Shown: positions 6,749-29,082 of the stretch, piece by piece
Layout of the letters: each line of letters opens with the position of its first letter
Position numbering within the stretch: position 1 is the first letter of the stretch
Made by a program: the position numbers and the translations under genes
IMG/VR virus record: IMGVR_UViG_3300033232_000028
Location: 1-41,838 of that record
Reading direction: 5' to 3' (one strand)
DNA: 41,838 nucleotides
From: a virus
Notes under the pieces: model-generated
Database searches by the model: none
The model's input: the letters and a program-made list of their open reading frames with translations, nothing else
Told to the model about the DNA's origin: nothing

Positions 6749-6780
6749 CACTCTATCACTCTATCACTCTATCACTCTAT
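6749..6780. repeat. Tandem repeat (cactctat)x4
   Basis: Four perfect 8-bp units. The TAG stop of 6777..7127 lies in the first unit when read on the minus strand. Confidence 0.95.
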
Positions 6781-7127
6781 CTGTTTCTATCAATGTCATA
6801 GAAATGTGGAGAGTGCAACTCAGGAGCTTGTGTCTCTCCTAAATGCTGTGGCGTTTCTGGGTACTTCTCAAGTCTTGCAATTTCTGCCTCAGCGTAGAAC
6901 TTAATCTTCTTAGCATCACGCAGTTGAGAAGAGTGAGATACTTTTCCGTAGCGATAACATGCCCGGAATATTTCTCCAATCTGTGAATTCATATTACGAA
7001 ATGAAATCAAGTCTTGAAGCTGTGAAGTTCCCGCAGGTAGTTCATAGTAAGAAGCTGTACTGCCATCACTGATTGTTGGTGTGGAATACGCTGTTTGTAC
7101 AGATGTTCGTGGTGAAGCTGGCATCAC
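6777..7127 (-). CDS. Hypothetical protein (116 aa)
   Basis: 4-nt overlap with the upstream DHH gene. No recognisable motif. Confidence 0.55.
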   Translation of the reverse strand: MMPASPRTSVQTAYSTPTISDGSTASYYELPAGTSQLQDLISFRNMNSQIGEIFRACYRYGKVSHSSQLRDAKKIKFYAEAEIARLEKYPETPQHLGETQAPELHSPHFYDIDRNR

Positions 7128-8206
7128 AACTCTCTCCTGTTAGGGTAAAAGAACTTATTCAATAATTCAATCGAGGACAGCTTAAAACCTGCTGCATTCT
7201 TGTGGCCACCTCCACCAAACTTAGCTGCAATCGCTGACACATCGAAGTCACCATTAGAACGAAGTGAGCATTCAACTGCTCCCTGAGTGTCTATATGCCA
7301 ACAGAGTCCATAGGTTCCAGACTCAGTTGCAAGGTGATGACCTACGTCAGAAGCTAGATGCTTAGGGCAATTAGCTGCAAGGCCTACTACTGCAACTTGG
7401 CGAGACATTGAAAGAGTCTTACCATCTTCGTGAGGATTATCAATTACATGAGATTCAAAGAACGTAAGTGAGCATTCACGTTTGGATGCAGCAATGATTG
7501 ATTGTACATTCTGGTTATGTGCTCTTAGGATTGCAGCACCTTCAATGCGCATATCAACATAAATAGCATTGATAGGATGTTTGTCCAACTCTAAGAACAT
7601 GCTGTTCCACTGTTCAAAACTCCAAGGAGCATAAGACCACAATGCTTTATTGAACTCTTTAGTTCCGTCAATCTTAAATTGCCAGCGATCATAGTCATCA
7701 ATGTGCTGAATCAGCTTAGGAGTCCCCTCTGATGGATGAAAGTAGTTCCAAGCAATCAATGCCCCAGAGCTGGTGTTATCTAAGATCACATGATGCAATG
7801 AGTTATAGCTAAACTTACCAATAGCTACTGCATCACAGAAATCATTACAGCTAGTATTAACTGGGAGACCGTACATATCAAATGCAGACTTGTGATGATC
7901 CAGCCAGATAACATTACTGCATCCAGAGAACAATGCTTCCATGATACTAACTGGAAAGCTGAAGTCTAAGATGTAAACCACTCGATCAGTTGTGCTGTAC
8001 TCAATATCTCCTACAGTAAGATACCCTGTCTCTACATTAAACTTAAAGCCATTGTAACTGACAGGTACATAGATTGCACCCTCAGCTCCTAAAGATTTCC
8101 ATGCTGCAAAGGCTGCACCAAAACCGTCAGCACAGTTAGCGTGATAGAGAACTAGAGGTAAGTTAGTGTTAGTGTTAGTGTTAGTGTTAGTGTTAGTTGT
8201 ATTCAT
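7124..8206 (-). CDS. DHH/DHHA1-family phosphoesterase (RecJ/NrnA-like)
   Basis: Motifs are YHANCADGFGAA, LDHHKS (DHH) and GGGGHKNAAGF (DHHA1). The N-terminus MNT(TN)6 is encoded by a hexanucleotide repeat. Confidence 0.8.
   Translation of the reverse strand: MNTTNTNTNTNTNTNLPLVLYHANCADGFGAAFAAWKSLGAEGAIYVPVSYNGFKFNVETGYLTVGDIEYSTTDRVVYILDFSFPVSIMEALFSGCSNVIWLDHHKSAFDMYGLPVNTSCNDFCDAVAIGKFSYNSLHHVILDNTSSGALIAWNYFHPSEGTPKLIQHIDDYDRWQFKIDGTKEFNKALWSYAPWSFEQWNSMFLELDKHPINAIYVDMRIEGAAILRAHNQNVQSIIAASKRECSLTFFESHVIDNPHEDGKTLSMSRQVAVVGLAANCPKHLASDVGHHLATESGTYGLCWHIDTQGAVECSLRSNGDFDVSAIAAKFGGGGHKNAAGFKLSSIELLNKFFYPNRREL
8162..8197. repeat. Tandem repeat (gttagt)x6, coding (ACT AAC)x6 on the minus strand
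   Basis: Six perfect 6-bp units form codons 4-15 of the DHH gene. Confidence 0.95.
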
Positions 8207-9105
8207 TTAGTTGCATCCTTTCTAGCTTTCAGATTAGCAAATGCTCGTTCAGCAGGAGTCTGATGTACAGAAGAAGTAACAGCAGCTGGAGTTTGAACAG
8301 TCGCATCCCTTGCAAATGTAGCACCAGTAAAAATCGGAAGTAGTGAGGGGATTGCAAGCTTCTCTATCTCAAAGTCAGTGCGGCTTTTAGTGAGCACATT
8401 AGGTAATGCAGTTGAAGAAGAAAATGCTACATGCTTTCTGTTTCTTACATCACAGTACACTACGTGCCCAAATGCTTTAGCTACTTCAGTGCTCATTGCA
8501 GCAGATCCGAATGTAGGAACTAGTTTAGTTTTCCCATCTTCCATTGCGGCTTCCTGTGCATGAAAGATTACAACAAGATTAAATGTTGCTGCTTGCATCT
8601 GAGATAGTGCAAACTCCGTATGCTTACGCAATGATCCCCAATCATCACGCTCAGGTTTAGCATCTACTGGCTTAGCTTTCATTATGTGGGCAAGGATTGA
8701 ATTGCTCCACTGAGTACCAGAGTCTATCACGACAATATCGTTGCTGTCAAGTAGGCTAAAGTCTAATATATCGAATGCTGTAGGATTAGCTTTAGTACAG
8801 ATTGCACAAGAATTCTTACCGTGAATATGACAAATATTAGCCTTACCTGCTCGGAACAGCGTAGCAAGAGTATCTGCTGCTATTGGATATGAGGCGCTAT
8901 CGGGAAGTCTGATCAGATCAATGTTAGCTTGTTGCGCAGGTGAGAGTTTAAGTAGTGTCTCTGCTCCGTTCTCAATGTCAAGCCAATGCAGTCGATACAT
9001 AGAGGAGAGTTCAGCTACTAGAGTTGTTTTACCGCTGCCTGGTAATCCTACCACAGCTACTCGCTGAGGCATGGATGACCCTGCAAAGCTATCAGAGAGT
9101 TTCAT
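8203..9105 (-). CDS. AAA_24/Sak4-like ATPase (RecA-fold recombination/replication accessory)
   Basis: Walker A is VVGLPGSGKTT. VVIDSGT, DWG, NLVVIFHAQE and KSRTDF follow in the order typical of AAA_24. There is a Cys/His insertion, CHIHGKNSCAIC. Confidence 0.7.
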   Translation of the reverse strand: MKLSDSFAGSSMPQRVAVVGLPGSGKTTLVAELSSMYRLHWLDIENGAETLLKLSPAQQANIDLIRLPDSASYPIAADTLATLFRAGKANICHIHGKNSCAICTKANPTAFDILDFSLLDSNDIVVIDSGTQWSNSILAHIMKAKPVDAKPERDDWGSLRKHTEFALSQMQAATFNLVVIFHAQEAAMEDGKTKLVPTFGSAAMSTEVAKAFGHVVYCDVRNRKHVAFSSSTALPNVLTKSRTDFEIEKLAIPSLLPIFTGATFARDATVQTPAAVTSSVHQTPAERAFANLKARKDATK

Positions 9106-9117
9106 TAGATGTACTCC

Positions 9118-9396
9118 TTATGATGCAGTTGATGTTGCTGCCATGTGTTGATAGATTAATTTCATGCCATTGATGTCTTTAGCAACCTGAGTTGTAATGG
9201 ATTCATTAGCTTTTGCTACAGCAGATGCTCCAAGTATAAAGGCAGCATACAGGAGAGCAGATGGAAGTTCCTTGTCTGGGTTAGATTCTTGTAGCTGCTC
9301 AATGTAAGTAGAAAAGACTGCAAGTAGCTTGTTGTTAGCTTCAATTGCTTCGATTGCTTCAGGAGTGAGAGGAGGTTGGTTGGATGGCTGTGTCAT
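9118..9396 (-). CDS. Hypothetical protein (92 aa)
   Basis: ORF with an AAGGA upstream. No recognisable motif. Confidence 0.5.
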   Translation of the reverse strand: MTQPSNQPPLTPEAIEAIEANNKLLAVFSTYIEQLQESNPDKELPSALLYAAFILGASAVAKANESITTQVAKDINGMKLIYQHMAATSTAS

Positions 9397-9431
9397 GGTA
9401 TTGGGTATCCTTTTAGAGGTAATTACTAAAT

Positions 9432-9464
9432 TTAGGTTGTACTTAGGTTGTACTTAGGTTGTAC
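9432..9464. repeat. Tandem repeat (ttaggttgtac)x3
   Basis: Three perfect 11-bp units. The first unit on the minus strand encodes the last codons and the TAA stop of the nuclease gene. Confidence 0.95.
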
Positions 9465-10392
9465 TCTTAGCCAGCTGTGCTTCAATTAAATCTTCCACAC
9501 TGAGTGAGATGTGGAATGCTGCATGATCTTCTAGAATCTTAACTTCTTGCTCCTGGGTAATTGGAACAGTCAGCAAGGATGTTGAGAGTGTGCATGTATT
9601 AAGATAGTCACACTCCCGATAGTAATTGAAACAAGATTCTCCATGCATAGGATAGACTCCAGCACTCTCGTAGAGTCTAATTGTCTCACAGTCCAGAAGA
9701 AGTTCCTGAATCCAGAGAGCGCGTTGCAGGTAACTCTTTTTAAAAGGTAGAGGGAAGTACTCTCTACTCTTAGTCATGTATACAAGATAGAGTACTTCAT
9801 AAGCTGAGAGTGAGGGGAACAATACATCAAGTACAATGCTGTATCCAATTGCTTGCGCTGAGTTCTTAAATGTGGCAGGGTTAATTGATGCAGAGCCTGT
9901 AGTCTTAACTTCCAGAATCTTAATTGCACCAGTAACTTTATGCCTCAATACAGCATCCACATAGCCACGGTATTTAAATCCATTAGGTAGATGAATGATG
10001 AAGGAGAGTTCTACTGCTGGAACTTCTGTGTCTGAATCTGCTGGAGTATAATACACTAACTCGTAATCATCTAGCAGAGTTGACTCACGCACATACTGGA
10101 ACCGCTCAATTGCAAGCATTGCTTCCCAGAAAGACTTACGCATCTTAGTATCTTCTGCCATTAAGTCTGCTTCCCAAGTAAGGAATGCATTCCAGTAGAT
10201 GGTATCTAAGTCCTTATGCTGGAGTACATCTTGAAGTCCTGCTCCTACTACATGGCCAAGAGAGAATGTTACTTGAGACTTTTCATCTACACTAGCCCTA
10301 GCAGTTCCAAGCTTAGATAGTTGGAACTTCCTTGGACAGGCGTGGAGTAGGAGGTTAGAGGAATAGCTGAGTTGTTTGAGTCTTGTGTCCAT
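9454..10392 (-). CDS. PD-(D/E)XK nuclease, Cas4/RecB-like with a 4-Cys cluster
   Basis: N-terminal HACPRKF. The nuclease core is GYVDAV...ILEVKT, with a QAIGY motif. The C-terminal cysteines are CFNYYRECDYLNTC. Confidence 0.8.
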   Translation of the reverse strand: MDTRLKQLSYSSNLLLHACPRKFQLSKLGTARASVDEKSQVTFSLGHVVGAGLQDVLQHKDLDTIYWNAFLTWEADLMAEDTKMRKSFWEAMLAIERFQYVRESTLLDDYELVYYTPADSDTEVPAVELSFIIHLPNGFKYRGYVDAVLRHKVTGAIKILEVKTTGSASINPATFKNSAQAIGYSIVLDVLFPSLSAYEVLYLVYMTKSREYFPLPFKKSYLQRALWIQELLLDCETIRLYESAGVYPMHGESCFNYYRECDYLNTCTLSTSLLTVPITQEQEVKILEDHAAFHISLSVEDLIEAQLAKSTT

Positions 10393-10811
10393 GATAGGTA
10401 TGATATCATCCAGTTAAGCACTTCTTTTTGAATGTGATACCTGCAACAGCAACGTAGATACCAGAGAGCGTGAGAGAATATACGGAATTTAAAGCTATTA
10501 AGTTTAGTTGAATGTGCTTTATCTACATAATTCCACACTGTCATAATATGCTCAGGAGGGAAGTCAACGTGCGAAGACATAATATGATTAACTACTGGGA
10601 GAGATAATCCCCAAAGCCTAAATTTAGTTATATCTTCAGCCTCGTCTATAATCCCAGAGTTTATGATTGCAATTACAAGATATACATCGAGATGTGGATC
10701 ATATTCACCAAGAGGGTGTGTAAGTGCAGGTTTAGACTCTTTAAGTGCAGCAATCTTTGATCTATCAATCTTAACTTGATTAGTTGAGGAGATCATGAGA
10801 GTTTCTTTCAA
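10287..10811 (-). CDS. Hypothetical protein (track start TTG 10811; ATG at 10796 more likely)
   Basis: The ORF overlaps the well-supported nuclease start by 106 nt in another frame, so the true 3' end is uncertain. Confidence 0.4.
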   Translation of the reverse strand: MKETLMISSTNQVKIDRSKIAALKESKPALTHPLGEYDPHLDVYLVIAIINSGIIDEAEDITKFRLWGLSLPVVNHIMSSHVDFPPEHIMTVWNYVDKAHSTKLNSFKFRIFSHALWYLRCCCRYHIQKEVLNWMISYLSWTQDSNNSAIPLTSYSTPVQGSSNYLSLELLGLV

Positions 10812-11094
10812 TCACAGCCACACTAAGATACTTCTCTTTCATGAGTTCTAGAATTTTTATCAATGCTTCAGATGTTGCAGCTTGTGATGCAGGTACAGGA
10901 ATTGCAAGTCTCAATGAGATATCCTCATACAAGGCAATGAATACCATAAGAAGGACTTGAGCTACTTTTTTAGGTGCAGCCGGGTCTAGGTTATCACAAA
11001 GATAACCACGAATGTGACCTTCAGTTCCAATGTTACAAGGTAAATCAAACACGGATTTAACTATACGGAGAGGGGCTGGCTGTAAGTGTTTCAC
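10780..11094 (-). CDS. Hypothetical protein (104 aa, GTG start)
   Basis: GGGAGA lies upstream of the GTG. No recognisable motif. Confidence 0.45.
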   Translation of the reverse strand: MKHLQPAPLRIVKSVFDLPCNIGTEGHIRGYLCDNLDPAAPKKVAQVLLMVFIALYEDISLRLAIPVPASQAATSEALIKILELMKEKYLSVAVIERNSHDLLN

Positions 11095-11109
11095 CGCAGT
11101 ATCTCCCTG

Positions 11110-11409
11110 TCAGAAGTCATCAAGGTCAAGATTTTTAAGAGCTTTCTTCTTAGGTTTAGATACTTCAACTAGATGGATCTTAGTTACATGCTGGAGTCCA
11201 GAGACAATTACTTTAATCTCTGATTCCTCAAGAAGGGTTACTACCTCAGGATCCGCTTTAAGTTGAGTATGGATTGTACGTAGGAGGGAAGGAATTAGAG
11301 GGTGAGCAGAAAGAAGATGTGCTTGAAGTGCTGCAATCTTTTCTTTAATGTCATCCACTCCAGATAGCATTGTAGTTGTTGATGTTGATGGCGCAGTTGC
11401 TGTGTTCAT
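11110..11409 (-). CDS. Hypothetical protein (99 aa) with an acidic-aromatic C-terminus ...LDLDDF
   Basis: ORF in the tightly packed operon. The C-terminal tail was read from the track translation. Confidence 0.55.
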   Translation of the reverse strand: MNTATAPSTSTTTMLSGVDDIKEKIAALQAHLLSAHPLIPSLLRTIHTQLKADPEVVTLLEESEIKVIVSGLQHVTKIHLVEVSKPKKKALKNLDLDDF

Positions 11410-11410
11410 T

Positions 11411-11647
11411 TCATAGATCCTCAGGTGAAAGATATAGTTTCAATCTAAAAAAGATCATGTTACCTTCACTTTTTGAAAGTACCTTTGCATTCCTATTTGC
11501 TTCAGCTAATTCATACCTGAATCCAGTGTCCATAGTTCTCTCTTTCAGGACAGCTTTAATTAGGCGTGCATGTAGATGTGCTGGATGCACAACTGTGACA
11601 CGTTTCTTTTGTTTTAACTGTAGCCAAATAGGAGTGTACTTACGCAT
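11411..11647 (-). CDS. Hypothetical basic protein (78 aa)
   Basis: ORF abutting the next gene. No recognisable motif. Confidence 0.5.
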   Translation of the reverse strand: MRKYTPIWLQLKQKKRVTVVHPAHLHARLIKAVLKERTMDTGFRYELAEANRNAKVLSKSEGNMIFFRLKLYLSPEDL

Positions 11648-11673
11648 TGGGTGATGATGTAATAATAACTACT

Positions 11674-11700
11674 GATTGGATTGAGCGATTGAGCGATTTG
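11674..11700. repeat. Imperfect tandem repeat (gattgagc), about 3 copies
   Basis: gattg-gattgagc-gattgagc-gatttg, in the spacer between 11708..11851 and 11411..11647. Confidence 0.8.
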
Positions 11701-11707
11701 AATTATG

Positions 11708-11851: not shown

Positions 11852-12036
11852 AATTGCTTCTCCTTTCCTATCACCACTACAGTACCGAGTTGTCCAGACC
11901 GCGAACACTGTAATGGATCAAGGAAAACACACCAACTAATTATAACGCTACAACTTACACTTCACGTTTCATTAGGCGATGTTACTGTAAGTTTGCACTG
12001 ACTTCAAGTTGAGCGGTCAGATAAAACTCTCTCAGC

Positions 12037-13639: not shown

Positions 13640-15412
13640 TCAATTACCTAGGTACCTGCCCTTAAAGAACTCTGCTTTCTCAGCAAGAGTGTTACCTTTG
13701 ATCTTCTGACTGATTACACCTTTAACAAATGTATCAGGCTCACAAATAACATAGACTTCTGAGCGTGCTCGGGTGAGAGCAGTATACAGAAGCTCACGCT
13801 GTAGCATGGTAGCATGTGATTGATGCAGCATTACAAATACTTTCTCCCACTCAGCACCTTGAGACTTATGTACTGTGAGAGCGTACCCATGCAGCATAGA
13901 ATTAACTTCACTTGCTGTTTCTAGTGTGACTTCTTCACCAGAATCAATCATCTGAACTGTGATAATGTGAGAGGCAGCTGTTACTCTAGCTTCACCATTA
14001 GAGGTTGATGACATTTCAGATAGCATCTTCTCTACATCTTCCTCTGTAAGTCCAAGCTCATTAGCTGCTGTTACTTCACGAGCAGCTAGTATTGCTTCTT
14101 CTGAACCTTGTTCACACCCCCAATAATCTAGAGTCGGTGAAGCTGGCTTAGGCTTCTTAGTTCCTGTGTATGATGCATTCTTATTGATTGATACTATGAT
14201 CGCATCTTCTTTATCATACATTACTCGATCACCTGGAGAAAAGTAATGAAATAAGAAACCTGCAATTACTTCATAAGTTGTTGCACCTCTCTTTCTTGCC
14301 AGATGATTAGCAATGTTTTTATTTAATTCTAGTGTACCGAATGATTTATTAAATGGACACAGTACAATGTGTTCTTCTGGATCATAGGCTCCTAGATCAA
14401 TTGCTTGCTTAAGGAATGCAGCAGCAGTAGCTAGAGCATCTTCACCTCGTAATTGTTTCTTCCAAGGATGAAATGTAATCTTACCATCTTCAGTTTGTTC
14501 AACGTGTTTGGATTTAAAACTGAATGTCTCTCCATTTTTAATTGCTGTAGCGTACTTAATGATAGGAGAATTAGCTGCTTGTCTGTAAATCTCTGTTAGT
14601 TCGATTACAGGCAATTCTTGCATCCGATAGCCTAGAACAGCTGAACCAAATACTGGGGGCAGCTGATTGATATCTCCTAGATAAATCTTTTGTACGTGGT
14701 GAGGGGATGCTATATTAATCTCTTCTTCAAGTTCAAGAGATACCATTGATGCTTCATCAATCACAATAGTTTTAATTGATTGATCTAATGGGTTGCGTGA
14801 AGATCGTGATGGAACAAATCGCATAGTTTTCTTATCTTCACCTGTTTCAGGATCAAATACTTCATAGTATTCAGGTTGATATTCAAGTAACTTATGGATT
14901 GTGATGCAGTTGTCTTTGAAGTCAGCGCTAACAGCTCGTTTAAGATTATTAACTGCGCGCCTAGTAAATGATGTTAGCACTACTGAAGGCGTACCAATTG
15001 GAAGATATTTATGTACACCTTCTAATTGTACTGCTCCAACTTTCTGTGCAAGTGCAGCAATTACAGCTTTGATACAAGTAGTTTTACCTGTACCTGCTGC
15101 TCCAATTAGAACACAATCAGCTCCAGAGAGAACTAGATTCATAAACTCTTGCTGGCGCTGATTTAATACAATGTCTCCAGAAAACTGCGCATGAGGAATG
15201 AGAGTCTCAGCAGCTTGTTTGAGTGCTGTATCTACAGAAGTTGAGTCTACAGAAGTTACAGATGCCACTTTAGATAGGTCTATATGTACTCCTGGGAGTG
15301 TAGATTGCTCTCTAGATTGCTCTCTAGATTGCTGAAGTTTCTTAAGTGCTTGGGCGGCTCTAGCTTTAGCTAGTAATTCAGCTAGAGGAGTTGGTCTCAT
15401 TGAGGTACTCAT
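13640..15412 (-). CDS. SF1 helicase, RecD/Dda-like
   Basis: Walker A is LIGAAGTGKTT and Walker B is IVIDEASMV. Also present are LGDINQLPPV and the C-terminal TVHKSQGAEW, LYTALTRA motifs. Confidence 0.9.
   Translation of the reverse strand: MSTSMRPTPLAELLAKARAAQALKKLQQSREQSREQSTLPGVHIDLSKVASVTSVDSTSVDTALKQAAETLIPHAQFSGDIVLNQRQQEFMNLVLSGADCVLIGAAGTGKTTCIKAVIAALAQKVGAVQLEGVHKYLPIGTPSVVLTSFTRRAVNNLKRAVSADFKDNCITIHKLLEYQPEYYEVFDPETGEDKKTMRFVPSRSSRNPLDQSIKTIVIDEASMVSLELEEEINIASPHHVQKIYLGDINQLPPVFGSAVLGYRMQELPVIELTEIYRQAANSPIIKYATAIKNGETFSFKSKHVEQTEDGKITFHPWKKQLRGEDALATAAAFLKQAIDLGAYDPEEHIVLCPFNKSFGTLELNKNIANHLARKRGATTYEVIAGFLFHYFSPGDRVMYDKEDAIIVSINKNASYTGTKKPKPASPTLDYWGCEQGSEEAILAAREVTAANELGLTEEDVEKMLSEMSSTSNGEARVTAASHIITVQMIDSGEEVTLETASEVNSMLHGYALTVHKSQGAEWEKVFVMLHQSHATMLQRELLYTALTRARSEVYVICEPDTFVKGVISQKIKGNTLAEKAEFFKGRYLGN
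15301..15334. repeat. In-frame tandem repeat (tagattgctctc), about 2.8 copies
   Basis: Encodes SREQSREQS in the helicase N-terminus. A second 12-bp pair (tctacagaagtt) lies at 15231-15258. Confidence 0.9.
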
Positions 15413-16083: not shown

Positions 16084-17214
16084 TTAGATATCTTCATGCT
16101 TATGCAAGGTTGTTACAGTAACTACTTCTGCATCAGTAGCTCGTCTAGCTGGAGCAGGAGAATCACTCTGAAAATCACTCTGAGAATCACTCTTATCAGA
16201 TTTTGAGGAAGTTATTACTTCTCCTATTGCTCCATACTGCTGTTTCATTCTGTATCTTGCTTTAGCTCTTACAAATTCAATTTCACTAGAGTAATTTGTT
16301 CTAACTGGCATTTCTGTAGGTGCATTCTGCATCATTACCAGCTTGTTAGTTGTTTCTACTACATCCTCAGAGGAGAGTGTCCCATTCTTAAATGCTACAA
16401 TATCGAAGTCAGAGAGACATAGGTAACTGCTTTGTGAGCGTTTTCCTGCCCGCAATAAATCCATTAAAGATGCAGCACTGATCGAACCATGAGGAATATG
16501 CTCTTCACAATGAGTAATCAATTCTTCCACATCCGCTGCAGGATACTGAAATATCTTTTCTTCACGAATACATGCAGTAATGATTTCTTTCCAGTAGTTA
16601 GCTAATGTTATTGGATTTTTTGTTAGAGGATGTAAAAGTACGAATGATGGAAACTGTCCAGCTAATTCCGCCCAATTAGCAAGAGCGATAGAGTATTTTT
16701 TAGCATTCTTTAGTTGTGTTGATTTAATCATACGCTCTAGTGCATACTCGCGCCTTGATATTCTCTCTTGTTCTGTTTGTTCTTTATATCCGCGCATGAA
16801 TTCAAGGAATGATTCATGCCAAGCTTCTACCCAATGCTTTACATTTTCAAGAGTGCAAGTGTCCCGAGTAATTGCAAATGATGGGAGTACAAACTTAGGA
16901 TGATGAATCAGATTAATTTTACCAATGATTTTGATCAATGGCTCCATATTAGTTGCTACTAATGCATCAGTGTTATTTGTTCTATGAACTGCATGTCTCC
17001 ACTCAAGTAATGATGTTGAATTCATGAGAGCAAGAAATAGGAGATATGAGTCAGTGGTTGTTAATTCTCCGGCACTCCATTTAGAGGAGTAACTTAGCAG
17101 CTTGTGTTGAGGTAATAGGAATACTGGATGGGAACATTCAGAATTGTTTAATGCCATTGGAAAGTGGTCGCATTTAAATACGATTCCACTGTATGCACAT
17201 GTTATTGTTGCCAT
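16084..17214 (-). CDS. Hypothetical protein (376 aa) with an N-terminal Cys/His cluster
   Basis: AAAGGAG RBS. The N-terminus is CAYSGIVFKCDH...ECSH. The C-terminus carries the low-complexity SDKSDSQSDFQSDS tail. Function unknown. Confidence 0.65.
   Translation of the reverse strand: MATITCAYSGIVFKCDHFPMALNNSECSHPVFLLPQHKLLSYSSKWSAGELTTTDSYLLFLALMNSTSLLEWRHAVHRTNNTDALVATNMEPLIKIIGKINLIHHPKFVLPSFAITRDTCTLENVKHWVEAWHESFLEFMRGYKEQTEQERISRREYALERMIKSTQLKNAKKYSIALANWAELAGQFPSFVLLHPLTKNPITLANYWKEIITACIREEKIFQYPAADVEELITHCEEHIPHGSISAASLMDLLRAGKRSQSSYLCLSDFDIVAFKNGTLSSEDVVETTNKLVMMQNAPTEMPVRTNYSSEIEFVRAKARYRMKQQYGAIGEVITSSKSDKSDSQSDFQSDSPAPARRATDAEVVTVTTLHKHEDI
16160..16195. repeat. In-frame imperfect tandem repeat, 12 bp x3
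   Basis: gaatcactctga / aaatcactctga / gaatcactctta, within the 3' end of 16084..17214. Confidence 0.85.
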
Positions 17215-17260: not shown

Positions 17261-17286
17261 TTGCTGTATTGAGTTGCTGTATTGAG
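17261..17286. repeat. Tandem repeat (ttgctgtattgag)x2
   Basis: Two perfect 13-bp units directly abut the TAA stop (17287-17289) of 17287..17490. Confidence 0.9.
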
Positions 17287-17490
17287 TTATCTTGTATTTA
17301 CAAACCGTTCAATAGTTCCAATTGCATTTAGATATGCTGGATCATCCAATGTGCATACTTCCCTGATTACTACTAATGCTGCTTTTACTTCCCTGATATG
17401 TGGAGGAGTAATACTGAGAGGTACTACTGCATTCACATGTGCTACTGATACATCTACTGGATTAGCTGGGTCTATTTGAATTTCTAGCAT
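17287..17490 (-). CDS. Hypothetical protein (67 aa)
   Basis: ORF only. An opposite-strand ORF of equal size also exists. Operon context favours the minus strand. Confidence 0.45.
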   Translation of the reverse strand: MLEIQIDPANPVDVSVAHVNAVVPLSITPPHIREVKAALVVIREVCTLDDPAYLNAIGTIERFVNTR

Positions 17491-18512: not shown

Positions 18513-18542
18513 TAATCATAATCATAATTATAATCATAATCA
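18513..18542. repeat. Tandem repeat (taatca)x5, one taatta variant
   Basis: The hexamer array supplies the -10 and most of the spacer of the promoter at 18527-18555. Confidence 0.9.
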
Positions 18543-18555
18543 TGTTTTTTGTCAA
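18527..18555 (-). promoter_or_regulatory. Perfect consensus sigma70-type promoter, TTGACA-N17-TATAAT
   Basis: The minus strand reads TTGACA (18555-18550), a 17-nt spacer, then TATAAT (18532-18527). The ATG of the small ORF is about 27 nt downstream of the -10. Confidence 0.85.
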
Positions 18556-18632: not shown

Positions 18633-18675
18633 ATACCTAGATACCTAGATACCATACCTAGATACCTAGATACCT
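18633..18675. repeat. Iteron-like array: 21-bp unit atacctagatacctagatacc x2 (atacctag x5 in total)
   Basis: Read directly from the sequence. It is flanked by tgttatccctat x2 (18601-18612 and 18622-18633). Confidence 0.9.
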
Positions 18676-18862
18676 TATTACCCTGCATGGCTACGGTTCG
18701 TTTGTCTATATTACCCCCCTTCTTAAATTTTAAACATAAGAGGAGGAGAGATAGATAACAACTAGAGATTATAGGTAGACAGATAACAACACGTGAATAG
18801 GAGTAATAACATTAGGAGAGGGGAGAAAAAAGGGGTCAGGGAAAGGGGGGTCAAATCATTTT

Positions 18863-18904
18863 ATGAATATGATTATGAATATGATTATGAATATGAATAT
18901 GATT
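18863..18904. repeat. Tandem repeat (atgaatatgatt), about 3.5 copies
   Basis: 12-bp units. The array is an approximate reverse complement of the taatca array at 18513-18542. Confidence 0.9.
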
Positions 18905-18952: not shown

Positions 18953-18956
18953 TAGA

Positions 18957-18998
18957 TTAAAAACATCTAATTAAAAACATCTAATTAGAATCATCTAA
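18957..18998. repeat. Tandem repeat, 14 bp x3 (ttaaaaacatctaa, third copy variant)
   Basis: Lies 13 nt downstream of the stop of 19012..19656. It contains the core ATCTAAT, which is shared with the array at 21175-21216. Confidence 0.9.
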
Positions 18999-19011
18999 TT
19001 CAAACTCGCAA

Positions 19012-19656: not shown

Positions 19657-19670
19657 GATAGGCTCACTTT

Positions 19671-19694
19671 CAATTAATCAATTAATCAATTAAA
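19671..19694. repeat. Tandem repeat (caattaat)x3, third copy caattaaa
   Basis: Lies immediately upstream of the start region of 19012..19656. Confidence 0.9.
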
Positions 19695-19762: not shown

Positions 19763-19927
19763 TTACCTTGTTGGATACTTACCAAACATCATGTAATAGC
19801 ATGAGTCAAAATCAACCCCAAGTTTAGCGCAATGCCGCGCAAATGCCCAGTGTCCCCACTGTTTAATCTTAGCTTCTGCTTTCTCAATCTTGATGGTTTC
19901 CATTGTTGTTTCCATTGTTGTTTCCAT
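19763..19927 (-). CDS. Unannotated small early ORF (54 aa, METTMETTMETIKIEKAEAKIKQWGHWAFARHCAKLGVDFDSCYYMMFGKYPTR)
   Basis: The start overlaps the upstream stop (TAATG). The first 11 codons are a 12-bp tandem repeat. Below the track cutoff. Confidence 0.5.
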   Translation of the reverse strand: METTMETTMETIKIEKAEAKIKQWGHWAFARHCAKLGVDFDSCYYMMFGKYPTR

Positions 19928-19931
19928 TATG
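19896..19931. repeat. Tandem repeat (gtttccattgtt)x3, third copy ends atg
   Basis: Encodes METT METT MET on the minus strand. Confidence 0.95.
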
Positions 19932-20088
19932 CTATCACCTCATAAACATTGTTAAACCTGCCATAACCAAACAGCTTAGGGCTAAGTATTTGTGCGCTCC
20001 TGAGACTCTTAGCAATGATACAGCCTAGCCGCTTACCTGTTGTAATGTCAATGACAATGTAATGGTTGTAATGGTTGTAATGGTTCAT
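19927..20088 (-). CDS. Unannotated small early ORF (53 aa, MNHYNHYNHYIVIDITTGKRLGCIIAKSLRSAQILSPKLFGYGRFNNVYEVIA)
   Basis: ATG at 20088 is preceded by GGAGAGGGAAG. It is the first ORF of the minus-strand arm, and its N-terminus is a 9-bp tandem repeat. Confidence 0.5.
   Translation of the reverse strand: MNHYNHYNHYIVIDITTGKRLGCIIAKSLRSAQILSPKLFGYGRFNNVYEVIA
20059..20085. repeat. Tandem repeat (gtaatggtt)x3
   Basis: Encodes (NHY)x3 on the minus strand. Confidence 0.95.
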
Positions 20089-20538
20089 ACTATCTTCCCT
20101 CTCCTATCTCCGTTGTTGATGTAGTTATTATAGTCATTCCCTTCAAGTTACCTATAGTACATTCATACTAATTTGCATAGTACATTCATACCACTGAGTG
20201 AGCAAGTGAGCAAGTGAGCTATCAAGTAAGTACCCACTAACATAACTATCTCCTGCAAGCAAGACTCATGCCAGCAACCAAGTAAGTAAGTGCTCACTAA
20301 CAAAGTGCCTACCCCCTGAGCCTTTTTTACAATCTGGCCGCTATCCTATCCTATAACGTTTACCAGATTTTCCTAAAAAATTTACAAAAACTCCACATAG
20401 TCAGGTAACTAACTACTTCATTCTGCAAACCCTACTAACACTAACTGCACTTCTCTGTCATAATGTTCATAATGTTACTATTCTGTAAGACAATAGCATA
20501 CACTCCATCTGCGCATACACTCCTGTAGGACTCTAATC
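20089..20538. promoter_or_regulatory. Divergent noncoding control region between the early (minus) and late (plus) arms
   Basis: 450 bp without credible ORFs, dense in direct repeats. These include atagtacattcatac x2 (20154, 20177), gtgagcaa x3 (20198-20221), caagtaagta..cactaaca x2 (20223, 20279), ctatc x3 (20341) and cataatgtt x2 (20459). Only weak -35/-10 candidates are present. Confidence 0.6.
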
Positions 20539-21180
20539 ATGCAATCTACACCAGCTGCACAATCTAACATTCAATCAAGTACTCATGGCATCGCTTCCAG
20601 CACTGAGGAGCGAGCACTTGTTTTACTTGGCCAAGGCATTTCACCTGAAGCAACTGCTTCTGCTTGTGGAGTATCAGTATCCAGAATCTCACAACTTCTC
20701 TCTGAGGACTCATTCGCTGCTGCTGTTGCAGCTCTCAGGTATGAAGCACTTCAGAAACACAATGCCCAAGATTCTCAGTATGATGAAATAGAATCAGCAT
20801 TAACTAAGAAATTCAAAGAGTCTATTCCTCTCATGATGAGACCGATGGAGATACTGAAAGGATTACAAGTAATTAATGCACAGAAAAGAAGAGGAAGTTC
20901 TGCTCCTGAATCTATCCTCGAAAAGCAACAAGTAGTTAATATCACTCTACCATCTGTTATCATTAACAACTTCACCAACGCAGCTCTAACTACCAATATC
21001 CACAACCAAGTAGTTAAGGTTGGTGATACTGATCTAACCACAATGCAATCTGGCACACTGCTGAATTCGCATAAAGTAGCAGAAGGATTAAGAAATGAAT
21101 CAGTCATTCAAGAACGAGTTAGAGAACTCACAGCTCCAACAATCCAAGAGCCTCCCAAATCAAAATACGAAGATATCTAA
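20539..21180 (+). CDS. terS: Terminase small subunit-like DNA-binding protein
   Basis: First late gene, directly upstream of terL. It has an N-terminal HTH-like segment, LLGQGISPEATASACGVSVSRISQLL. Confidence 0.5.
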   Translation: MQSTPAAQSNIQSSTHGIASSTEERALVLLGQGISPEATASACGVSVSRISQLLSEDSFAAAVAALRYEALQKHNAQDSQYDEIESALTKKFKESIPLMMRPMEILKGLQVINAQKRRGSSAPESILEKQQVVNITLPSVIINNFTNAALTTNIHNQVVKVGDTDLTTMQSGTLLNSHKVAEGLRNESVIQERVRELTAPTIQEPPKSKYEDI

Positions 21181-21216
21181 TACATCTAATATATCTAATA
21201 TATCTAATATATCTGA
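21175..21216. repeat. Tandem repeat (atctaatat), about 4.5 copies
   Basis: 9-bp units. The TAA stop of the terS-like gene (21178-21180) lies in the first unit. Confidence 0.95.
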
Positions 21217-22857: not shown

Positions 22858-23198
22858 CGGATCTCTCTATGCAACCTGATTCTGACGCCATCAATGTACT
22901 TGAACTTATCAATGCTTCTCATGGTGATCTCTTAATGAAACGAGCAGACTTACCTGATGATGATCCTCTCCAGCAACTTATTGCTCCATTTGAACATAGA
23001 GCATTTGCTAGAGAGCAAGCTCAGCAGAATCCAATAGCTACAGCTATTACTATGCCATTCATGATCCCCGGTTATGCAATGATGAAAGCATTAGGACTTC
23101 AATCAGGACGTACTCCAGCTTCCATTGAGCAAGTTAAACAAGGCTATCTTGGCTTGCATGAAGGCCTTAAAGCTTCACTGTTTGGCACACGCAAGTAG
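22836..23198 (+). CDS. Hypothetical protein (120 aa; alternative ATG at 22869)
   Basis: ORF between terL and portal. The GTG start overlaps the end of terL. Confidence 0.5.
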   Translation: MQFFTLLTDLSMQPDSDAINVLELINASHGDLLMKRADLPDDDPLQQLIAPFEHRAFAREQAQQNPIATAITMPFMIPGYAMMKALGLQSGRTPASIEQVKQGYLGLHEGLKASLFGTRK

Positions 23199-23228
23199 TT
23201 TCAAGCTAGTTTCAAGCTAGTTTCAAGC
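23196..23228. repeat. Tandem repeat (tagtttcaagc)x3
   Basis: Three perfect 11-bp units. The first TAG is the stop codon of 22836..23198. Confidence 0.95.
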
Positions 23229-23279
23229 TGTCACTTAATTATCTCACTCAACCATTTTAACGGGCTTTCCTATCTTGTT

Positions 23280-25578: not shown

Positions 25579-25584
25579 TTAATA

Positions 25585-26304
25585 ATGAGCATCCTCGACA
25601 TTTTTTCTTCTAAGCCTGCACCTGCTGCACCTGTTGCCACTACAGATACCTCAGCAACTCCTGCTGATGAAACTCAAACTGCAGCTCCAAATGCTGACGC
25701 AACTTCAAACAAGTCTGCTGATGTCAGTACAACCCCGCTTGACGGTTTTACTAAGCTGTGGGAAACTGATGCTAGCTCAACGGACACAACTAACCAATCC
25801 CTGTTTGGTGATCTTGATCCTAAGAAAGTATTTGAAGCTGCAAAAGGTGCTAACTTTGCAGGAGCAATCAGCCCAGAAGTTCTTCAAGCTGTAGCTGCTG
25901 GTGGAGATGGCGCAACTGCTGCACTGCAACAAGCAATTAACTCCTCTACTCAAGCTGCTTTCGCACAGGCTATGATCGCATCAACTAAGTTGATCGAACA
26001 AGCTATCACTAAAACCAATGCTAAGAATCTCGCTGATTTGCCAGGACTTGTTAAACGGCACACTGCAGCAGACTCTCTGCATACGGAAAATCCTGCACTA
26101 TCTAATCCCGCTGCTGCACCTATTATCGCTGCTGTTCAAGCACAACTTGCACTCAAGCATCCTGATGCAACAGCAAGTCAGTTGAAAGCTATGGCAACAG
26201 ATTACCTTAGTAACTTCGCTGAAGTGGTTAAACCTACTAAAGCTCCTGAATCTAAGAAAGTTGATGTCGGCGCAACTGACTGGAGCACTTTTCTTACTTC
26301 GTAA
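25585..26304 (+). CDS. Scaffolding protein (by position)
   Basis: 239 aa, Ala/Thr/Asp-rich with a low-complexity N-terminus. It lies directly upstream of the major capsid gene. Confidence 0.55.
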   Translation: MSILDIFSSKPAPAAPVATTDTSATPADETQTAAPNADATSNKSADVSTTPLDGFTKLWETDASSTDTTNQSLFGDLDPKKVFEAAKGANFAGAISPEVLQAVAAGGDGATAALQQAINSSTQAAFAQAMIASTKLIEQAITKTNAKNLADLPGLVKRHTAADSLHTENPALSNPAAAPIIAAVQAQLALKHPDATASQLKAMATDYLSNFAEVVKPTKAPESKKVDVGATDWSTFLTS

Positions 26305-26321: not shown

Positions 26322-26341
26322 TTCAATTCAATTTAATTCAA
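26322..26341. repeat. Pentamer array ttcaa-ttcaa-tttaa-ttcaa
   Basis: Lies immediately upstream of the AGGAGA RBS of the capsid gene. Confidence 0.8.
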
Positions 26342-26354
26342 TAGGAGAAACACA

Positions 26355-27572: not shown

Positions 27573-27579
27573 ACCCCCT

Positions 27580-27620
27580 GAGAGAGGACGACCTTAATTG
27601 TTGTCCTTCTCTCTTTTCTC
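27580..27620 (+). terminator. Rho-independent terminator after the capsid gene
   Basis: GAGAGAGGAC - 13-nt loop - GTCCTTCTCTC (10 bp with a 1-nt bulge), followed by TTTTCTC. Confidence 0.75.
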
Positions 27621-27654
27621 TACTCTCCAAATCTAAACACAGGAATTATATATC

Positions 27655-28092: not shown

Positions 28093-28105
28093 GTTCACTC
28101 TAACG

Positions 28106-28128
28106 AGAATCTTTGAAAGAATCTTTGA
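28106..28128. repeat. Direct repeat (agaatctttga)x2
   Basis: Two 11-bp copies separated by 1 nt, ending 1 nt before the ATG at 28130. No Shine-Dalgarno sequence is visible there. Confidence 0.85.
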
Positions 28129-28129
28129 T

Positions 28130-28723
28130 ATGCCAAACGCAGCCTTTACAGCTTTGCTTACAGATGTATACAGCATCACTAATAGGAGTGACCTTGTAGC
28201 TGAGACTACTCTTGCTGTAAGGGCTGCGACTCTGAAGCTTCACCAGAGTGATTTTTATCCTAAAGACTTGTCTGAGGCTAAGGTGCAATTTGCATCTTCA
28301 GATTATTTCCAGTCTTTAGCTTACAGCTCTTTGTTCCCTAGATTCCGTAATCTCGCATACATCCGTAAATACGAGAATGGTGCGCCAACAAGTACACTTA
28401 AAGTTATTGAACCTACAAATATCTTTGATTCATATGGTGTAGCTAAAGAAGATGTATGCTATATGGCAGGTACAGTAATCCAGATTAAATCATCTACAGC
28501 AGTTCAAGATGTTCTACTCGGCTTCTATCAAAACCCTATCACTGATCCTGAAACTTATTCTTCTTGGATTGATGATAATTACAGGTATGCAATTGTAGTT
28601 GAAGCTGTTGCTACCGTATTCAAGATGATTGGCTTTGATGAGCAAGCCTCTATGTATAAGAATATTGCAGCTGAGTGGGCAATGCAAGTTAAAAACTCCA
28701 ATATACTAGCTGAAGGTTATTAA
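28130..28723 (+). CDS. Head-tail adaptor / tail tubular A-type protein (by position)
   Basis: 197-aa ORF in the T7-like slot after the capsid gene. The call rests on synteny only. Confidence 0.4.
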   Translation: MPNAAFTALLTDVYSITNRSDLVAETTLAVRAATLKLHQSDFYPKDLSEAKVQFASSDYFQSLAYSSLFPRFRNLAYIRKYENGAPTSTLKVIEPTNIFDSYGVAKEDVCYMAGTVIQIKSSTAVQDVLLGFYQNPITDPETYSSWIDDNYRYAIVVEAVATVFKMIGFDEQASMYKNIAAEWAMQVKNSNILAEGY

Positions 28724-28735
28724 GGATTTATTAAG

Positions 28736-29053
28736 ATGTCAGATTGGTTTAACCTATTGACAGGCAATGAGTGGCAGCATTACATTCCGTTTGCAGCGCT
28801 TGTAGCAAAACAGCCTATACCAGAAAATAGACCAGCTGCAACAAGAATAATTGAGCAGGGCTTTGTTGGATTAATAGCCTCTGCTGTCACCTTACTTGCC
28901 ACAGTTCAAATTATGCAGAATGATATTGAGGCTTTAAAGAAAGACGCTGATAAGAGAGAGGCGATTGCTGCTAAAGCTGTTGCTGACTCTGAGGTACGTG
29001 TTACAAGTCAAATTCAAGAACTGCGTTCAATTATGTTGCGCGCAAATAGATAG
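28736..29053 (+). CDS. Membrane-anchored coiled-coil protein (holin or i-spanin-like candidate, or virion protein)
   Basis: One hydrophobic segment, GFVGLIASAVTLLATVQIM, is followed by a charged helical region. Confidence 0.5.
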   Translation: MSDWFNLLTGNEWQHYIPFAALVAKQPIPENRPAATRIIEQGFVGLIASAVTLLATVQIMQNDIEALKKDADKREAIAAKAVADSEVRVTSQIQELRSIMLRANR

Positions 29054-29082
29054 CTTAATAGCTTAATAGCTTAATAGCTTAA
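29051..29082. repeat. Tandem repeat (tagcttaa)x4
   Basis: Four perfect 8-bp units. The first TAG is the stop codon of 28736..29053. Confidence 0.95.

Follow-up and report, generated by a model that had tools for sequence, protein, structure and literature searches.

Short tandem repeats in viral genomes are already known to obey general placement rules (PMC12699852), and a whole array syndrome has been described for Borg elements, whose tandem repeats have flanking partial repeats (PMC9879509). The window analysed here, a stretch of 41,838 nucleotides (IMGVR_UViG_3300033232_000028), is a metagenome-assembled contig (JGI) that represents a complete 41.7-kb environmental podophage genome, 91% coding, with 9.3% of bases non-coding. 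It is a small-phage counterpart of the tandem-repeat richness of the giant archaeal Borg elements, and the partial-copy remainders of its arrays resemble the flanking partial repeats of those elements (PMC9879509). The original prediction for this DNA, that boundary-anchored duplication is not a described feature of any phage group, agrees with the literature, although the general rules (PMC12699852) and the Borg arrays (PMC9879509) were known. We consider it probable, though some way from certain, that the arrays are recent products of unusually active tandem duplication filtered by purifying selection. They would then survive only where they are harmless: at stop codons, in spacers, and in frame within floppy protein linkers.

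Arrays were detected with TRF and an exact-period scan, combined with inspection of sequence context. Perfect arrays with a unit of 4-30 bp, two or more copies and a length of 18 bp or more number 20 in the window, compared with 0.18 +/- 0.38 in 100 dinucleotide-preserving shuffles; those of 24 bp or more number 15, compared with 0.01. Most arrays are 100% perfect (TRF), and they are 18-49 bp long and low in copy number (2-6). The predicted excess was therefore confirmed, and every locus listed was recovered, exactly or to within 1-5 nt. The list was incomplete, lacking arrays at 18513..18543, 18633..18675, 18861..18902, 20197..20219, 20458..20476, 25616..25633 and 39150..39167. Two listed loci are poor as repeats (28106..28128, just 1.9 copies; 26322..26342, 87% perfect) but are real duplications by comparison with relatives. 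The density of arrays of at least 24 bp is 0.36/kb in the window, 0.050/kb in its own family (1.4 Mb; Poisson P = 7e-9 for the window against this rate) and 0.004/kb in 80 T7-like IMG/VR loci (1.6 Mb), which places the window about 80-fold above T7-like phages. Perfect arrays in reference genomes number two in 119X, two in Tiera, four in T7, one in lambda and four in EBPR podovirus-3, and are mostly minimal (2 x 9 bp).

In a metagenome-assembled contig, arrays above the assembler k-mer could have mis-estimated copy number, and de Bruijn graph loops or amplification chimeras could create them outright. Such an artefact is extremely improbable here. The arrays are below typical read length, T7-like contigs from the same collection are nearly array-free, and identical arrays occur in independent assemblies or samples (L084/85/86, L005/L006, and L209/210/211, assembled separately as L209 (ENA, k127), L210 (ENA, k141) and L211 (JGI)). 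Nor are the frame rule and stop-side placement described below expected from artefacts.

Placement is non-random, as predicted: 12 of the 20 arrays lie at least 50% in intergenic DNA, which makes up 9.3% of bases (P = 2.5e-8). Unit length is divisible by three in all eight intragenic arrays, as had been claimed, against three of 12 non-coding ones (P = 0.0014). Family-wide the figures are 49/51 intragenic and 9/36 intergenic (P = 1e-12), and 24 of the 51 intragenic arrays fall in the terminal 10% of genes (P = 1e-5), so the placement rules are valid across relatives and not just in the window. The claim that intergenic units are mostly not multiples of three stands except for its 9-bp case at 21173..21214 (+) (ATATCTAAT x4.7, 93% perfect), which obeys the frame rule because it lies in frame ((SNI)n) within a conserved small ORF (21095-21340) overlapping the end of the small-terminase gene (20539-21180).

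The in-frame arrays occupy linkers that are gapped or variable among orthologs. At 8162..8197 (-), ACTAAC x6 encodes MNT(TN)6 at the N-terminus of a DHH phosphoesterase (7124-8206), and alignment with orthologs begins only at aa 13-18. A 12-bp unit x2.75 at 15301..15333 (-) encodes QSREQSREQS (aa 27-37) in a linker of the Dda-like helicase that is gapped or variable among orthologs, and another in-frame one (x2.8, 95% perfect) at 16161..16193 (-) falls in the tail (SDKSDSQSDFQSDS) of gene 16084-17214, a variable C-terminal stretch. The array at 20058..20085 (-), AACCATTAC x3.1, follows directly behind the ATG of gene 19927-20088 to give M(NHY)3, while CTGCACCTG x2 at 25616..25633 (+) lies, in frame, in the N-terminal part of gene 25585-26304, a region rich in Pro and Ala. 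The array at 32716..32742 (+) (12 bp x2.25, GQQQGQQQG) was formerly assigned to a terminal tail but sits in the middle of the 302-aa product of gene 32326-33234 (aa 131-139); its counterpart in L006 shows a single GQNQ together with a gap.

Seven arrays carry the stop of the upstream gene inside their first unit. Six had been predicted and were confirmed. In 6749..6781 (-), GATAGAGT x4.1 (sense), the first unit holds the TAG of gene 6777-7127 and the array extends 28 nt downstream. The array at 9432..9465 (-), AGTACAACCTA x3.1, starts 9 nt ahead of the TAA of an exonuclease gene (9454-10392), which straddles the boundary between the first two units. The first base of 17261..17288 (-), AACTCAATACAGC x2.15, is the second nucleotide of the TAA of gene 17287-17490. 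The degenerate first unit of 21173..21214 holds the small-terminase TAA, 23196..23229 (+), TAGTTTCAAGC x3.1, has its first base on the TAG of gene 22836-23198, and in 29050..29084 (+), ATAGCTTA x4.4, which occupies 31 of 48 spacer nucleotides, the TAG of gene 28736-29053 forms nt 2-4 of the first unit. The seventh, 19896..19928 (-), AATGGAAACAAC x2.75 (in frame, METTMETTMET), is added here because its first unit contains the TAA of gene 19927-20088, together with the ATG of gene 19763-19927. Two further arrays lie shortly past stops: 11679..11698 (-), AATCGCTC x2.5, in a spacer 9 nt past the stop of gene 11708-11908, and 18956..19004 (-), 14 bp x3.5 and 88% perfect, closely 3' of the stop of gene 19012-19656.

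The suspected enrichment at gene ends holds against random placement within the same spacer, with five anchored arrays observed and 1.7 expected using crude gene calls (P = 0.014). In relatives the values are 15 and 9.6 (P = 0.015), counting the near-identical L084-L086 as three. In co-directional spacers across the family, 27 of 36 arrays are closer to the preceding stop than to the following start (P = 0.004), with median gaps of 2 nt and 31 nt, respectively. Stop anchoring beyond plain intergenic location is thus real but moderate.

This pattern could mean that the arrays are selected functional elements of gene ends, namely translational insulators, uncoupling spacers or RNA/DNA binding platforms. 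A stop-containing unit not divisible by three, repeated at least three times, places stops in all three frames, and four of the seven stop-anchored arrays (6749, 9432, 23196, 29050) do so. The stop-side bias throughout the family is consistent with such a role, as are the overlap of certain arrays with -10-like or -35-like hexamers and the recurrence of independent arrays at the small-terminase stop (in the window, and as a 12-bp array at the same site in L002/L209) and in the 19.7-kb spacer. In the latter, TTAATTGA x3 at 19670..19693 (-) lies 13 nt 5' of the ATG of gene 19012-19656, and the orthologous spacer of L006 has an unrelated 8-bp x2.6 array. We nevertheless regard selected function as unlikely. 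Three-frame stops are the automatic outcome of duplicating such a unit, and in arrays off stops the stop triplets are equally frequent in sense and antisense (11 vs 11 units), which leaves the proposed insulation of translation or transcription without support. The units differ between loci, as had been noted, and no 5-mer above chance is common to the 104 distinct units, so no single binding protein is involved; support for operators was likewise not found. Promoter-like matches in the region show no excess (38 vs 51 in shuffles). The closest relatives keep the same genes with the arrays missing or single-copy, and no array occurs in 18 kb of the L212 sister lineage.

A few arrays overlap promoter elements in the large control regions, of which there are two (18395-19011 and 20089-20538). 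In the 617-bp spacer, the hexamer array (TAATCA)5.2 at 18513..18543 (-) includes the -10 box of a sigma-70 promoter that matches the consensus perfectly, and the array is conserved in L006; it is probably functional and not a young duplication. Its reverse-complement partner at 18861..18902 (-), (TTATGA/ATATGA)n of 12 bp x3.5, lies ~320-330 nt away, with arms 85-89% complementary. The same spacer carries a ATACCTAG-based array at 18633..18675 (-), readable as 21 bp x2 or as 8 bp x5.8 with indels. The 450-bp divergent region holds an 8-bp unit x2.9 at 20197..20219 (-) and TCATAATGT x2.1 at 20458..20476 (+), in which a -10-like CATAAT is doubled upstream of the structural operon. Given the promoter overlap and the one conserved inverted hexamer pair, a few control-region arrays may serve regulation, whether from the outset or by later recruitment.

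Doubled -10-like hexamers (18513, 18861 and 20458) are also what contingency loci might show, where high-frequency copy-number switching varies expression or protein function within a population, and perfect arrays are expected under continual slippage. L209, L210 and L211, 99.9% identical genomes from three independent studies belonging to a sister lineage as array-rich as the window, differ by a single indel of at least 4 bp, a (CCATTC) array of 4.5 vs 3.5 copies in the promoter-bearing divergent region. This one change lends the predicted contingency variation a little weight, but we think such switching quite unlikely. No copy-number change was found in L084/85/86, which share 3-8 arrays at 0.2-0.6% divergence, so lability is moderate; array copy number is labile in the family, with a single observed event. 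Frame switching is impossible with intragenic units that are multiples of three in every window case and nearly all family ones, copy numbers are low, most arrays lie 3' of stops, a position in which copy number has no evident effect on phenotype, and receptor-binding or surface proteins are not over-represented among the affected genes.

Comparison of orthologous junctions indicates that the arrays are young and have independent origins. In relatives at ~87-89% nucleotide identity they are missing or present as single-copy seeds. The array at 26322..26342 (+), TTCAA x4.2, closely 5' of the capsid-gene ribosome-binding site, corresponds there to a single TTCAAT, and 28106..28128 (+), AGAATCTTTGAA x1.9, directly 5' of the ATG of gene 28130-28723, to one copy, AGAATCTTCGAC. 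L001 (portal 88% aa identity) has no array in a region that holds three in the window. About 10% of junctions in relatives bear arrays with unrelated units (DNA polymerase 5/41; portal 5/17), and no unit common to two genomes at the same junction was found. Array richness belongs to the phage family as a whole, with a patchy distribution, and density differs sharply between sister lineages.

Several stop-anchored arrays adjoin small accessory genes that relatives lack or have exchanged for others (L202 has a replacement for gene 28736-29053, and L001 lacks gene 22836-23198), and for junctions with arrays, relatives offer few orthologous counterparts. The arrays might on these grounds mark places where illegitimate or modular recombination exchanged accessory genes and left scars or linkers, which we consider very unlikely. 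Recombination leaves dispersed flanking repeats or common boundary sequences at its joints and does not produce 3-6 head-to-tail copies, and the lack of shared units at orthologous junctions removes support for the linkers originally suggested. At 26322 and 28106 the flanking genes are conserved and collinear in single-copy relatives, and arrays that lie in frame within conserved genes (the helicase and the DHH phosphoesterase, and the portal tail in relatives) are incompatible with module joints.

The favoured reading is tandem duplication followed by selection, and we infer that slippage generates the arrays and that selection sorts them. Slipped-strand mispairing, as phage DNA is replicated or undergoes recombination-dependent repair, would duplicate a segment of 5-14 bp that has a few bases of microhomology at its flanks, and later slippage would expand it. 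Duplications probably occur genome-wide. As the genome is 91% coding, selection would remove all but three classes: arrays in non-coding DNA outside the ribosome-binding/promoter zone, on or just past a stop codon, where the first copy leaves the gene intact; arrays with the start codon or at protein ends; and in-frame arrays in variable linkers. Such a filter would yield both the apparent anchoring to gene boundaries and units divisible by three only inside genes. 'Boundary-anchored' would then largely describe the residue left by purifying selection, and tolerance accounts for the ~3-fold stop anchoring only if the remainder of each spacer is constrained.

Of the four explanations originally offered, with no choice made among them, a lineage-specific high rate of slippage or duplication at tolerated sites is supported by the perfect arrays, single-copy relatives, unrelated units, uneven lineages and microhomology signature, the last seen in partial-copy remainders averaging 2.5 nt against ~0.37 by chance. 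A cause for the raised rate was not found, since the proofreading motifs of the phage polymerase are intact and no gene tracked array density. The strong 8-bp mode (20 of the 39 units with a length indivisible by three) counts against this reading, as generic slippage does not predict it. The 9 bp x2 array at 39150..39167 (+), in frame in a 1587-aa virion protein, is minimal and of about the size found in ordinary phages.

Tandem Repeats Finder reported 42 rows with a score of at least 30 in the window, and an exact-period scan (units of 4-30 bp, at least 2 copies, at least 18 bp) recovered 20 perfect arrays, 15 of them at least 24 bp long. One hundred dinucleotide-preserving shuffles gave 0.18 ± 0.38 arrays of at least 18 bp and 0.01 of at least 24 bp. 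Shuffles are always exceeded by real genomes, so real-genome baselines were used. The phages 119X, Tiera, T7, lambda and EBPR podovirus-3 carry 1-4 arrays each, nearly all of the minimal 2 x 9 bp kind. Arrays of at least 24 bp occur at 0.36 per kb in the window, 0.050 per kb in its own family (1.38 Mb) and 0.004 per kb in 80 T7-like IMG/VR loci (L122-L201, 1.59 Mb), and the array count of the window departs strongly from the family rate (Poisson P = 7e-9). In a published survey, the short-tandem-repeat density of bacterial viruses was close to that of simulated genomes (PMC12699852). Taken with our baselines, this makes the window a strong outlier, about 80-fold above the T7-like rate, and its family as a whole moderately elevated. 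The original prediction of about 20 tandem-repeat loci with non-random placement was therefore confirmed, as 12 of the 20 arrays are mostly intergenic (P = 2.5e-8), and the window is far richer than both its shuffles and the related podophages.

A few other lineages of the family are equally rich, namely L084-L086 (0.49 per kb) and L002 with L209-L211 (0.33-0.51 per kb). The sister lineage L212 (capsid 85% amino acid identity) has no arrays in 18 kb and the relative L206 has few. The array-free L212 beside these array-rich lineages indicates that array abundance is patchy among close lineages. The window and this patchy subset of relatives are some 10-100 times richer in arrays than phages at near-chance density (PMC12699852). 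De novo arrays are almost absent from the T7-like baseline. There, 34 of 35 intergenic arrays have 11-bp units, and these look like one locus conserved across those phages.

The window begins and ends with an exact 127-bp overlap (1-127 = 41712-41838), which indicates a complete genome of 41,711 unique bp (~41.7 kb), either circularly closed or terminally redundant. A structural arm on the plus strand runs from 20539 through 41838 and round to 1956, and encodes the small and large terminase subunits, portal, a scaffold-like protein, an SU10-type major capsid protein and a 1587-aa virion protein. The replication arm (1961-20088, minus strand) encodes primase, family A DNA polymerase, a DHH phosphoesterase, a Sak4-like annealase, exonuclease and a Dda-like helicase. 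Scans of the window for Rfam families and tRNAs were both empty. Nucleotide searches with the window matched no GenBank phage, and the nearest cultured phages, Pseudomonas phage 119X/PaP2 and Polaromonas phage Tiera, match its architecture but have a portal identity of only ~33%. The 119X/PaP2-like podophages (Fredfastierviridae) share the two-arm architecture and gene order of the window but have no nucleotide similarity to it. Judged on these features, the window is probably a distant relative of that group and not a member of the same family. Its uncultured relatives number in the hundreds in IMG/VR and other metagenomes. Exact-protein look-ups with the capsid and Sak4-like proteins found no second contig, and in one metagenome scan with the portal the nearest genome was 81% identical at the amino acid level, with none closer. 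The closest relatives are the fragments L202-L205 (87-89% nucleotide identity), which were reached via the capsid protein cluster of the window.

Array placement in the window was assigned using a manual gene model that is 90.7% coding. Unit lengths are multiples of 3 in all 8 intragenic arrays compared with 3 of the 12 non-coding ones (P = 0.0014). The 9-bp array at 21173-21214, which had been regarded as an intergenic exception, proved to lie in frame inside a small ORF (21095-21340, 81 aa), so it too obeys the frame rule. This ORF shares the final 86 nt of the small-terminase gene, read in a different frame, and is conserved in the relatives L001, L002, L003, L005 and L006. Its middle linker is variable and has gained repeats independently in two lineages. 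In seven arrays of the window (6749, 9432, 17261, 19896, 21173, 23196 and 29050) the first unit contains the stop of the upstream gene and the array continues downstream, while three (8162, 19896 and 20058) begin at or just after a start codon. Compared with arrays placed at random inside the same spacers, stop anchoring is enriched about 3-fold in the window (5 observed, 1.7 expected, P = 0.014, using crude gene calls) and 1.6-fold in the relatives (15 and 9.6, P = 0.015, with the near-identical L084-L086 counted separately).

The relatives follow the same rules. Intergenic DNA makes up 7.8% of family bases and holds 36 of 87 arrays. Among non-redundant relatives, units divisible by 3 occur in 49 of 51 intragenic but only 9 of 36 intergenic arrays (P = 1e-12), and 24 of the 51 intragenic arrays fall in the terminal 10% of a gene (P = 1e-5). 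Between co-directional genes, 27 of 36 spacer arrays are closer to the stop than to the next start (P = 0.004); median distances are 2 nt from the stop and 31 nt from the next start, and 16 arrays overlap the stop. The expected enrichment near the ends of coding sequences was thus found, as a stop-side bias, in both window and family, and the repetition of the placement rules across relatives identifies them as a family property, not an oddity of a single assembly. Viral short tandem repeats in general are enriched just outside gene ends and favour in-frame units in coding DNA (PMC12699852). The window shares both tendencies and differs from that survey in its outlier density, which a few relatives match.

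The arrays are most simply accounted for by tandem duplication and slippage at a raised rate, combined with purifying selection. New arrays would be generated at the raised rate and then sorted by selection. Where a stop codon lies inside the duplicated segment the protein would be unchanged and the array tolerated, while the zone before the next start, being needed for translation and transcription signals, would be kept free of arrays. Within genes, only in-frame events in tolerant linkers would survive. Boundary anchoring is then best explained as the survivorship pattern of high-rate tandem duplication in a gene-dense genome. The alternative that the arrays were selected as three-frame terminators or insulators is not supported, since stops in three frames arise automatically when a stop-containing unit of a length not divisible by 3 is duplicated. 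In addition, stop triplets in arrays located off stops are equally frequent in sense and antisense (11 and 11), giving no sense bias, and close relatives manage without the arrays of the window.

Two arrays have single-copy counterparts in the closest relatives. The 12-bp tandem duplication of the window at site 28106 is matched in L202-L205 by one copy of AGAATCTTCGAC followed by ATG, and in place of the TTCAA x4.2 array at site 26322 these relatives have one TTCAAT ahead of the ribosome-binding site. Conversely, an in-frame 9-bp x2.8 array is present in L202 and absent from L204 and the window. Orthologues are gapped or cannot be aligned across the stretches that hold the in-frame arrays of the window, as with GQQQGQQQG against a single GQNQ in L006, and L002 and L209 carry an independent (PTST)n array at the exact site of the (SNI)n array of the window. 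Arrays occupy ~10% of junctions in relatives, always with unrelated units. Orthologues of the array-bearing junctions of the window have arrays in 1 of 8 cases compared with 21 of 207 elsewhere, a comparison with too few relatives to be informative.

Copy number was compared between near-identical genomes. L209, L210 and L211 (99.9% identical, from three independent studies and as array-rich as the window) differ by a single indel of at least 4 bp, a copy change in a (CCATTC) array in the divergent control region that precedes the small-terminase gene, with 4.5 copies in L209 (3861-3887), 3.5 in L210 (3867-3887) and 4.5 in L211 (43-69). L084, L085 and L086 (99.4-99.8% identical) have their arrays in common with unchanged copy number. 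Other near-identical pairs of relatives differ by 10 indels of at least 4 bp, one of tandem type, too few for a mutation spectrum. Single-copy seeds, unrelated arrays, copy change and recurrence together indicate that the arrays are real DNA of recent and independent birth, with moderate lability. That they are assembly artefacts is extremely improbable: reads are longer than the arrays, which keep to codon-frame rules and turn up again in independent assemblies, and T7-like contigs of the same collection are without them. A role as recombination linkers is very unlikely, given that a unit is never common to two genomes at one junction and that arrays have been born between conserved collinear genes.

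Arrays in control regions are probably a different subset. The 617-bp spacer at 18395-19011 forms a nested dyad of ~400 bp (18504-18914). Its outer arms (18513-18543 and 18861-18902) are (TAATCA)n and the reverse complement (TGATTA)n, the next arms (18555-18567 and 18839-18851) are the C-rich and G-rich ACCCCCCTGTCCC and GGGAAAGGGGGGT, and the inner arms (18583-18639 and 18751-18791) have the form TGTTATC... and ...GATAACA; a hairpin (18913-18962) lies beside the dyad. The inverted hexamer pair also occurs in L006 (portal 74% amino acid identity) at 5426-5452 and 5744-5773, and in no other family locus compared. A perfect sigma-70 promoter (12/12; TTGACA, 17 nt, TATAAT) on the minus strand at 18555-18527 reads into the genes at 18209-18394 and onward, and its -10 box is a variant unit within the (TAATCA)n array. 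A second good promoter is found at 12837-12809 (TTGACA, 17 nt, CATAAT, with TG), and array 20458 contains a duplicated CATAAT box ahead of the structural operon. In a scan for promoters and terminators the overall hits were not above those in shuffles. From their sequence, the window promoters suggest a host with canonical sigma-70 promoters, the control-region arrays look like regulatory architecture and not neutral debris, and the nested dyad is a candidate origin or operator region.

Contingency loci are the phase-variable repeats of Haemophilus, Neisseria, Campylobacter and some of their phages. In the classical case a gene is switched on or off by out-of-frame units within its ORF or by a change in promoter spacing. 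Such loci resemble the arrays of the window in being short tandem repeats of labile copy number, some of which lie in promoter regions here, and the arrays of the two control regions alone could act in this way, via promoter structure or spacing. Most arrays here, however, are downstream of stops, copy numbers are low, and the intragenic units (8 of 8 in the window and 49 of 51 in the family are multiples of 3) provide no frame switch. We therefore consider it unlikely that the arrays are contingency loci.

Clues to the process that forms the arrays came from the units themselves. Among 104 distinct units from the window and family, the top-ranking 5-mer has 9 occurrences where 2 are expected, an excess that loses significance once corrected. 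With no common motif among them, the units argue against a single binding protein, nicking site or primase site. Partial copies at array ends average 2.5 nt compared with ~0.37 by chance, the footprint expected if a microhomology-flanked segment is duplicated by slipped mispairing. The sense strand of window arrays is modestly enriched in A (37.5%, genome 29.8%) and depleted in G (14.6%, genome 21.1%), and that of family spacer arrays is 36.6% A. GC content did not correlate with array density (rho = 0.21, P = 0.12), and a comparison of gene presence or absence with array density, which is confounded by locus coverage, gave nothing convincing. An exonuclease-deficient polymerase was rejected as the cause, as the Exo I (DIET), Exo II (QNGKYD) and Exo III (YYxYNAxD) motifs are intact and conserved. 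The same polymerase (3772-6114) has lineage-specific insertions at aa 128-132, 384-391 and 646-649 relative to at least 90% of family members, and substitutions at the otherwise conserved positions I105, Y110, I363 and I451.

Unit lengths peak at 8 bp, which accounts for 20 of the 39 units not divisible by 3 among the 104 distinct window and family arrays, and for 6 non-coding arrays of the window. Detection required at least 2.5 copies of an 8-bp unit and only 2 copies of 10-11 bp units, so the stricter demand falls on the 8-bp class and the peak is not a detection effect. Generic slippage does not predict this excess. It could reflect a lineage-specific, active duplication process with a preferred step of ~8 bp, possibly tied to the phage's own replication and recombination module (family A polymerase, primase, Dda-like helicase, Sak4-like annealase and exonuclease), that continually seeds spacers and peptide repeats at gene ends; or the stop-codon arrays might themselves be selected, as three-frame terminators or spacers. 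We regard this pair of proposals as speculative and rather doubtful.

Slipped-strand mispairing is the textbook route to VNTRs in bacteria and phages. The arrays of the window share with such systems head-to-tail perfect copies, end partials of microhomology size, whole-unit changes and the removal of frame-breakers, but are dominated by de novo duplication of non-repetitive 8-14-mers instead of mono- to tetranucleotide tracts. Slippage has also been discussed for the repeats of Borgs (PMC9879509), extrachromosomal elements of archaea in which tandem direct repeats are pervasive and perfect, and of a type that the host genome almost entirely lacks (Schoelmerich et al. 2023, PMC9879509; Al-Shayeb et al. 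2022, PMC9605863). Like Borgs, the window has many perfect head-to-tail arrays with a unit unique to each locus. Genic units are all divisible by 3 (49 of 51 in the family here) and encode amino-acid repeats in disordered or variable regions, while intergenic units divisible by 3 are a minority in both (14-38% in Borgs, 25% here). Both have arrays bordered by partial repeats, an excess of adenine on the coding strand (here ~37%, compared with 30%), and close relatives in which arrays are missing or different. Copy number varies in Borgs, and here changed once within a sister lineage represented by three 99.9%-identical assemblies.

The two systems differ in that the window is a 42-kb bacterial podophage and Borgs are archaeal elements of ~1 Mb. 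Example Borg units are 18-21 nt in 6-8 copies (PMC9879509), compared with 5-14 bp in 2-6 copies with a mode of 8 bp here, and the window encodes a family A polymerase with proofreading motifs where PolB is proposed for Borgs. The stop-side bias, quantified here, is a further difference. The window and some relatives thus show the Borg syndrome: their arrays are perfect, young and different at each locus, and it is only within genes that they are in frame. Literature searches found no prior description of such a feature in a phage, in agreement with the original prediction. The phenomenon belongs, on a smaller scale, to the kind described for Borgs, and the rules of its placement are already known generally (PMC12699852). 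We found no evidence of a new functional system; the window is a clear outlier of moderate interest with an odd 8-bp preference.

Mycobacteriophage start-associated sequences and stoperators, and the iterons of plasmids and phages, resemble the window in having short repeats between genes near starts or stops, as do the shared intergenic TAACTGA direct repeats of Beggiatoaceae (PMC4679880). Each of these systems uses a single consensus again and again across loci, implying a single binding factor. Here, in contrast, each locus has its own unit, and no consensus is reused across loci except in the inverted (TAATCA)n/(TGATTA)n pair in 18395-19011, which alone is operator- or iteron-like.

If the duplication rate is phage-encoded, a 42-kb podophage would be far easier than Borgs for finding the driver of de novo tandem duplication, and the birth of spacers, N- and C-terminal peptide repeats and duplicated promoter boxes could be watched. 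A real duplication process, or real selection of arrays, would place a Borg-like repeat generator in a genetically tractable, phage-sized system. If only relaxed selection or a host effect is involved, the window would be an ordinary illustration of mutation and purifying selection, and a warning that selection by itself yields non-random placement when a genome is gene-dense.

Several further features were observed in the structural arm. The spacer after the capsid gene (27573-27654; 3240-3316 in L202) contains a hairpin, GAGAGAAGG...CCTTCTCTC, followed by a T-rich run and kept in relatives, which is likely to be a terminator; the apparent arrays of L202 and L205 in this spacer are part of the CT-rich 3' side of the hairpin. 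The gene upstream of array 29050 (28736-29053) is replaced in L202 (4412-4702) by a non-homologous small gene of similar size, and with both flanks 87% identical the difference is, on alignment, a local gene-cassette swap. The neighbouring genes at 30634-31137 and 31152-31814 cross-match each other's orthologues in tblastn searches at 23-27% identity, and appear to be an old tandem gene duplication.
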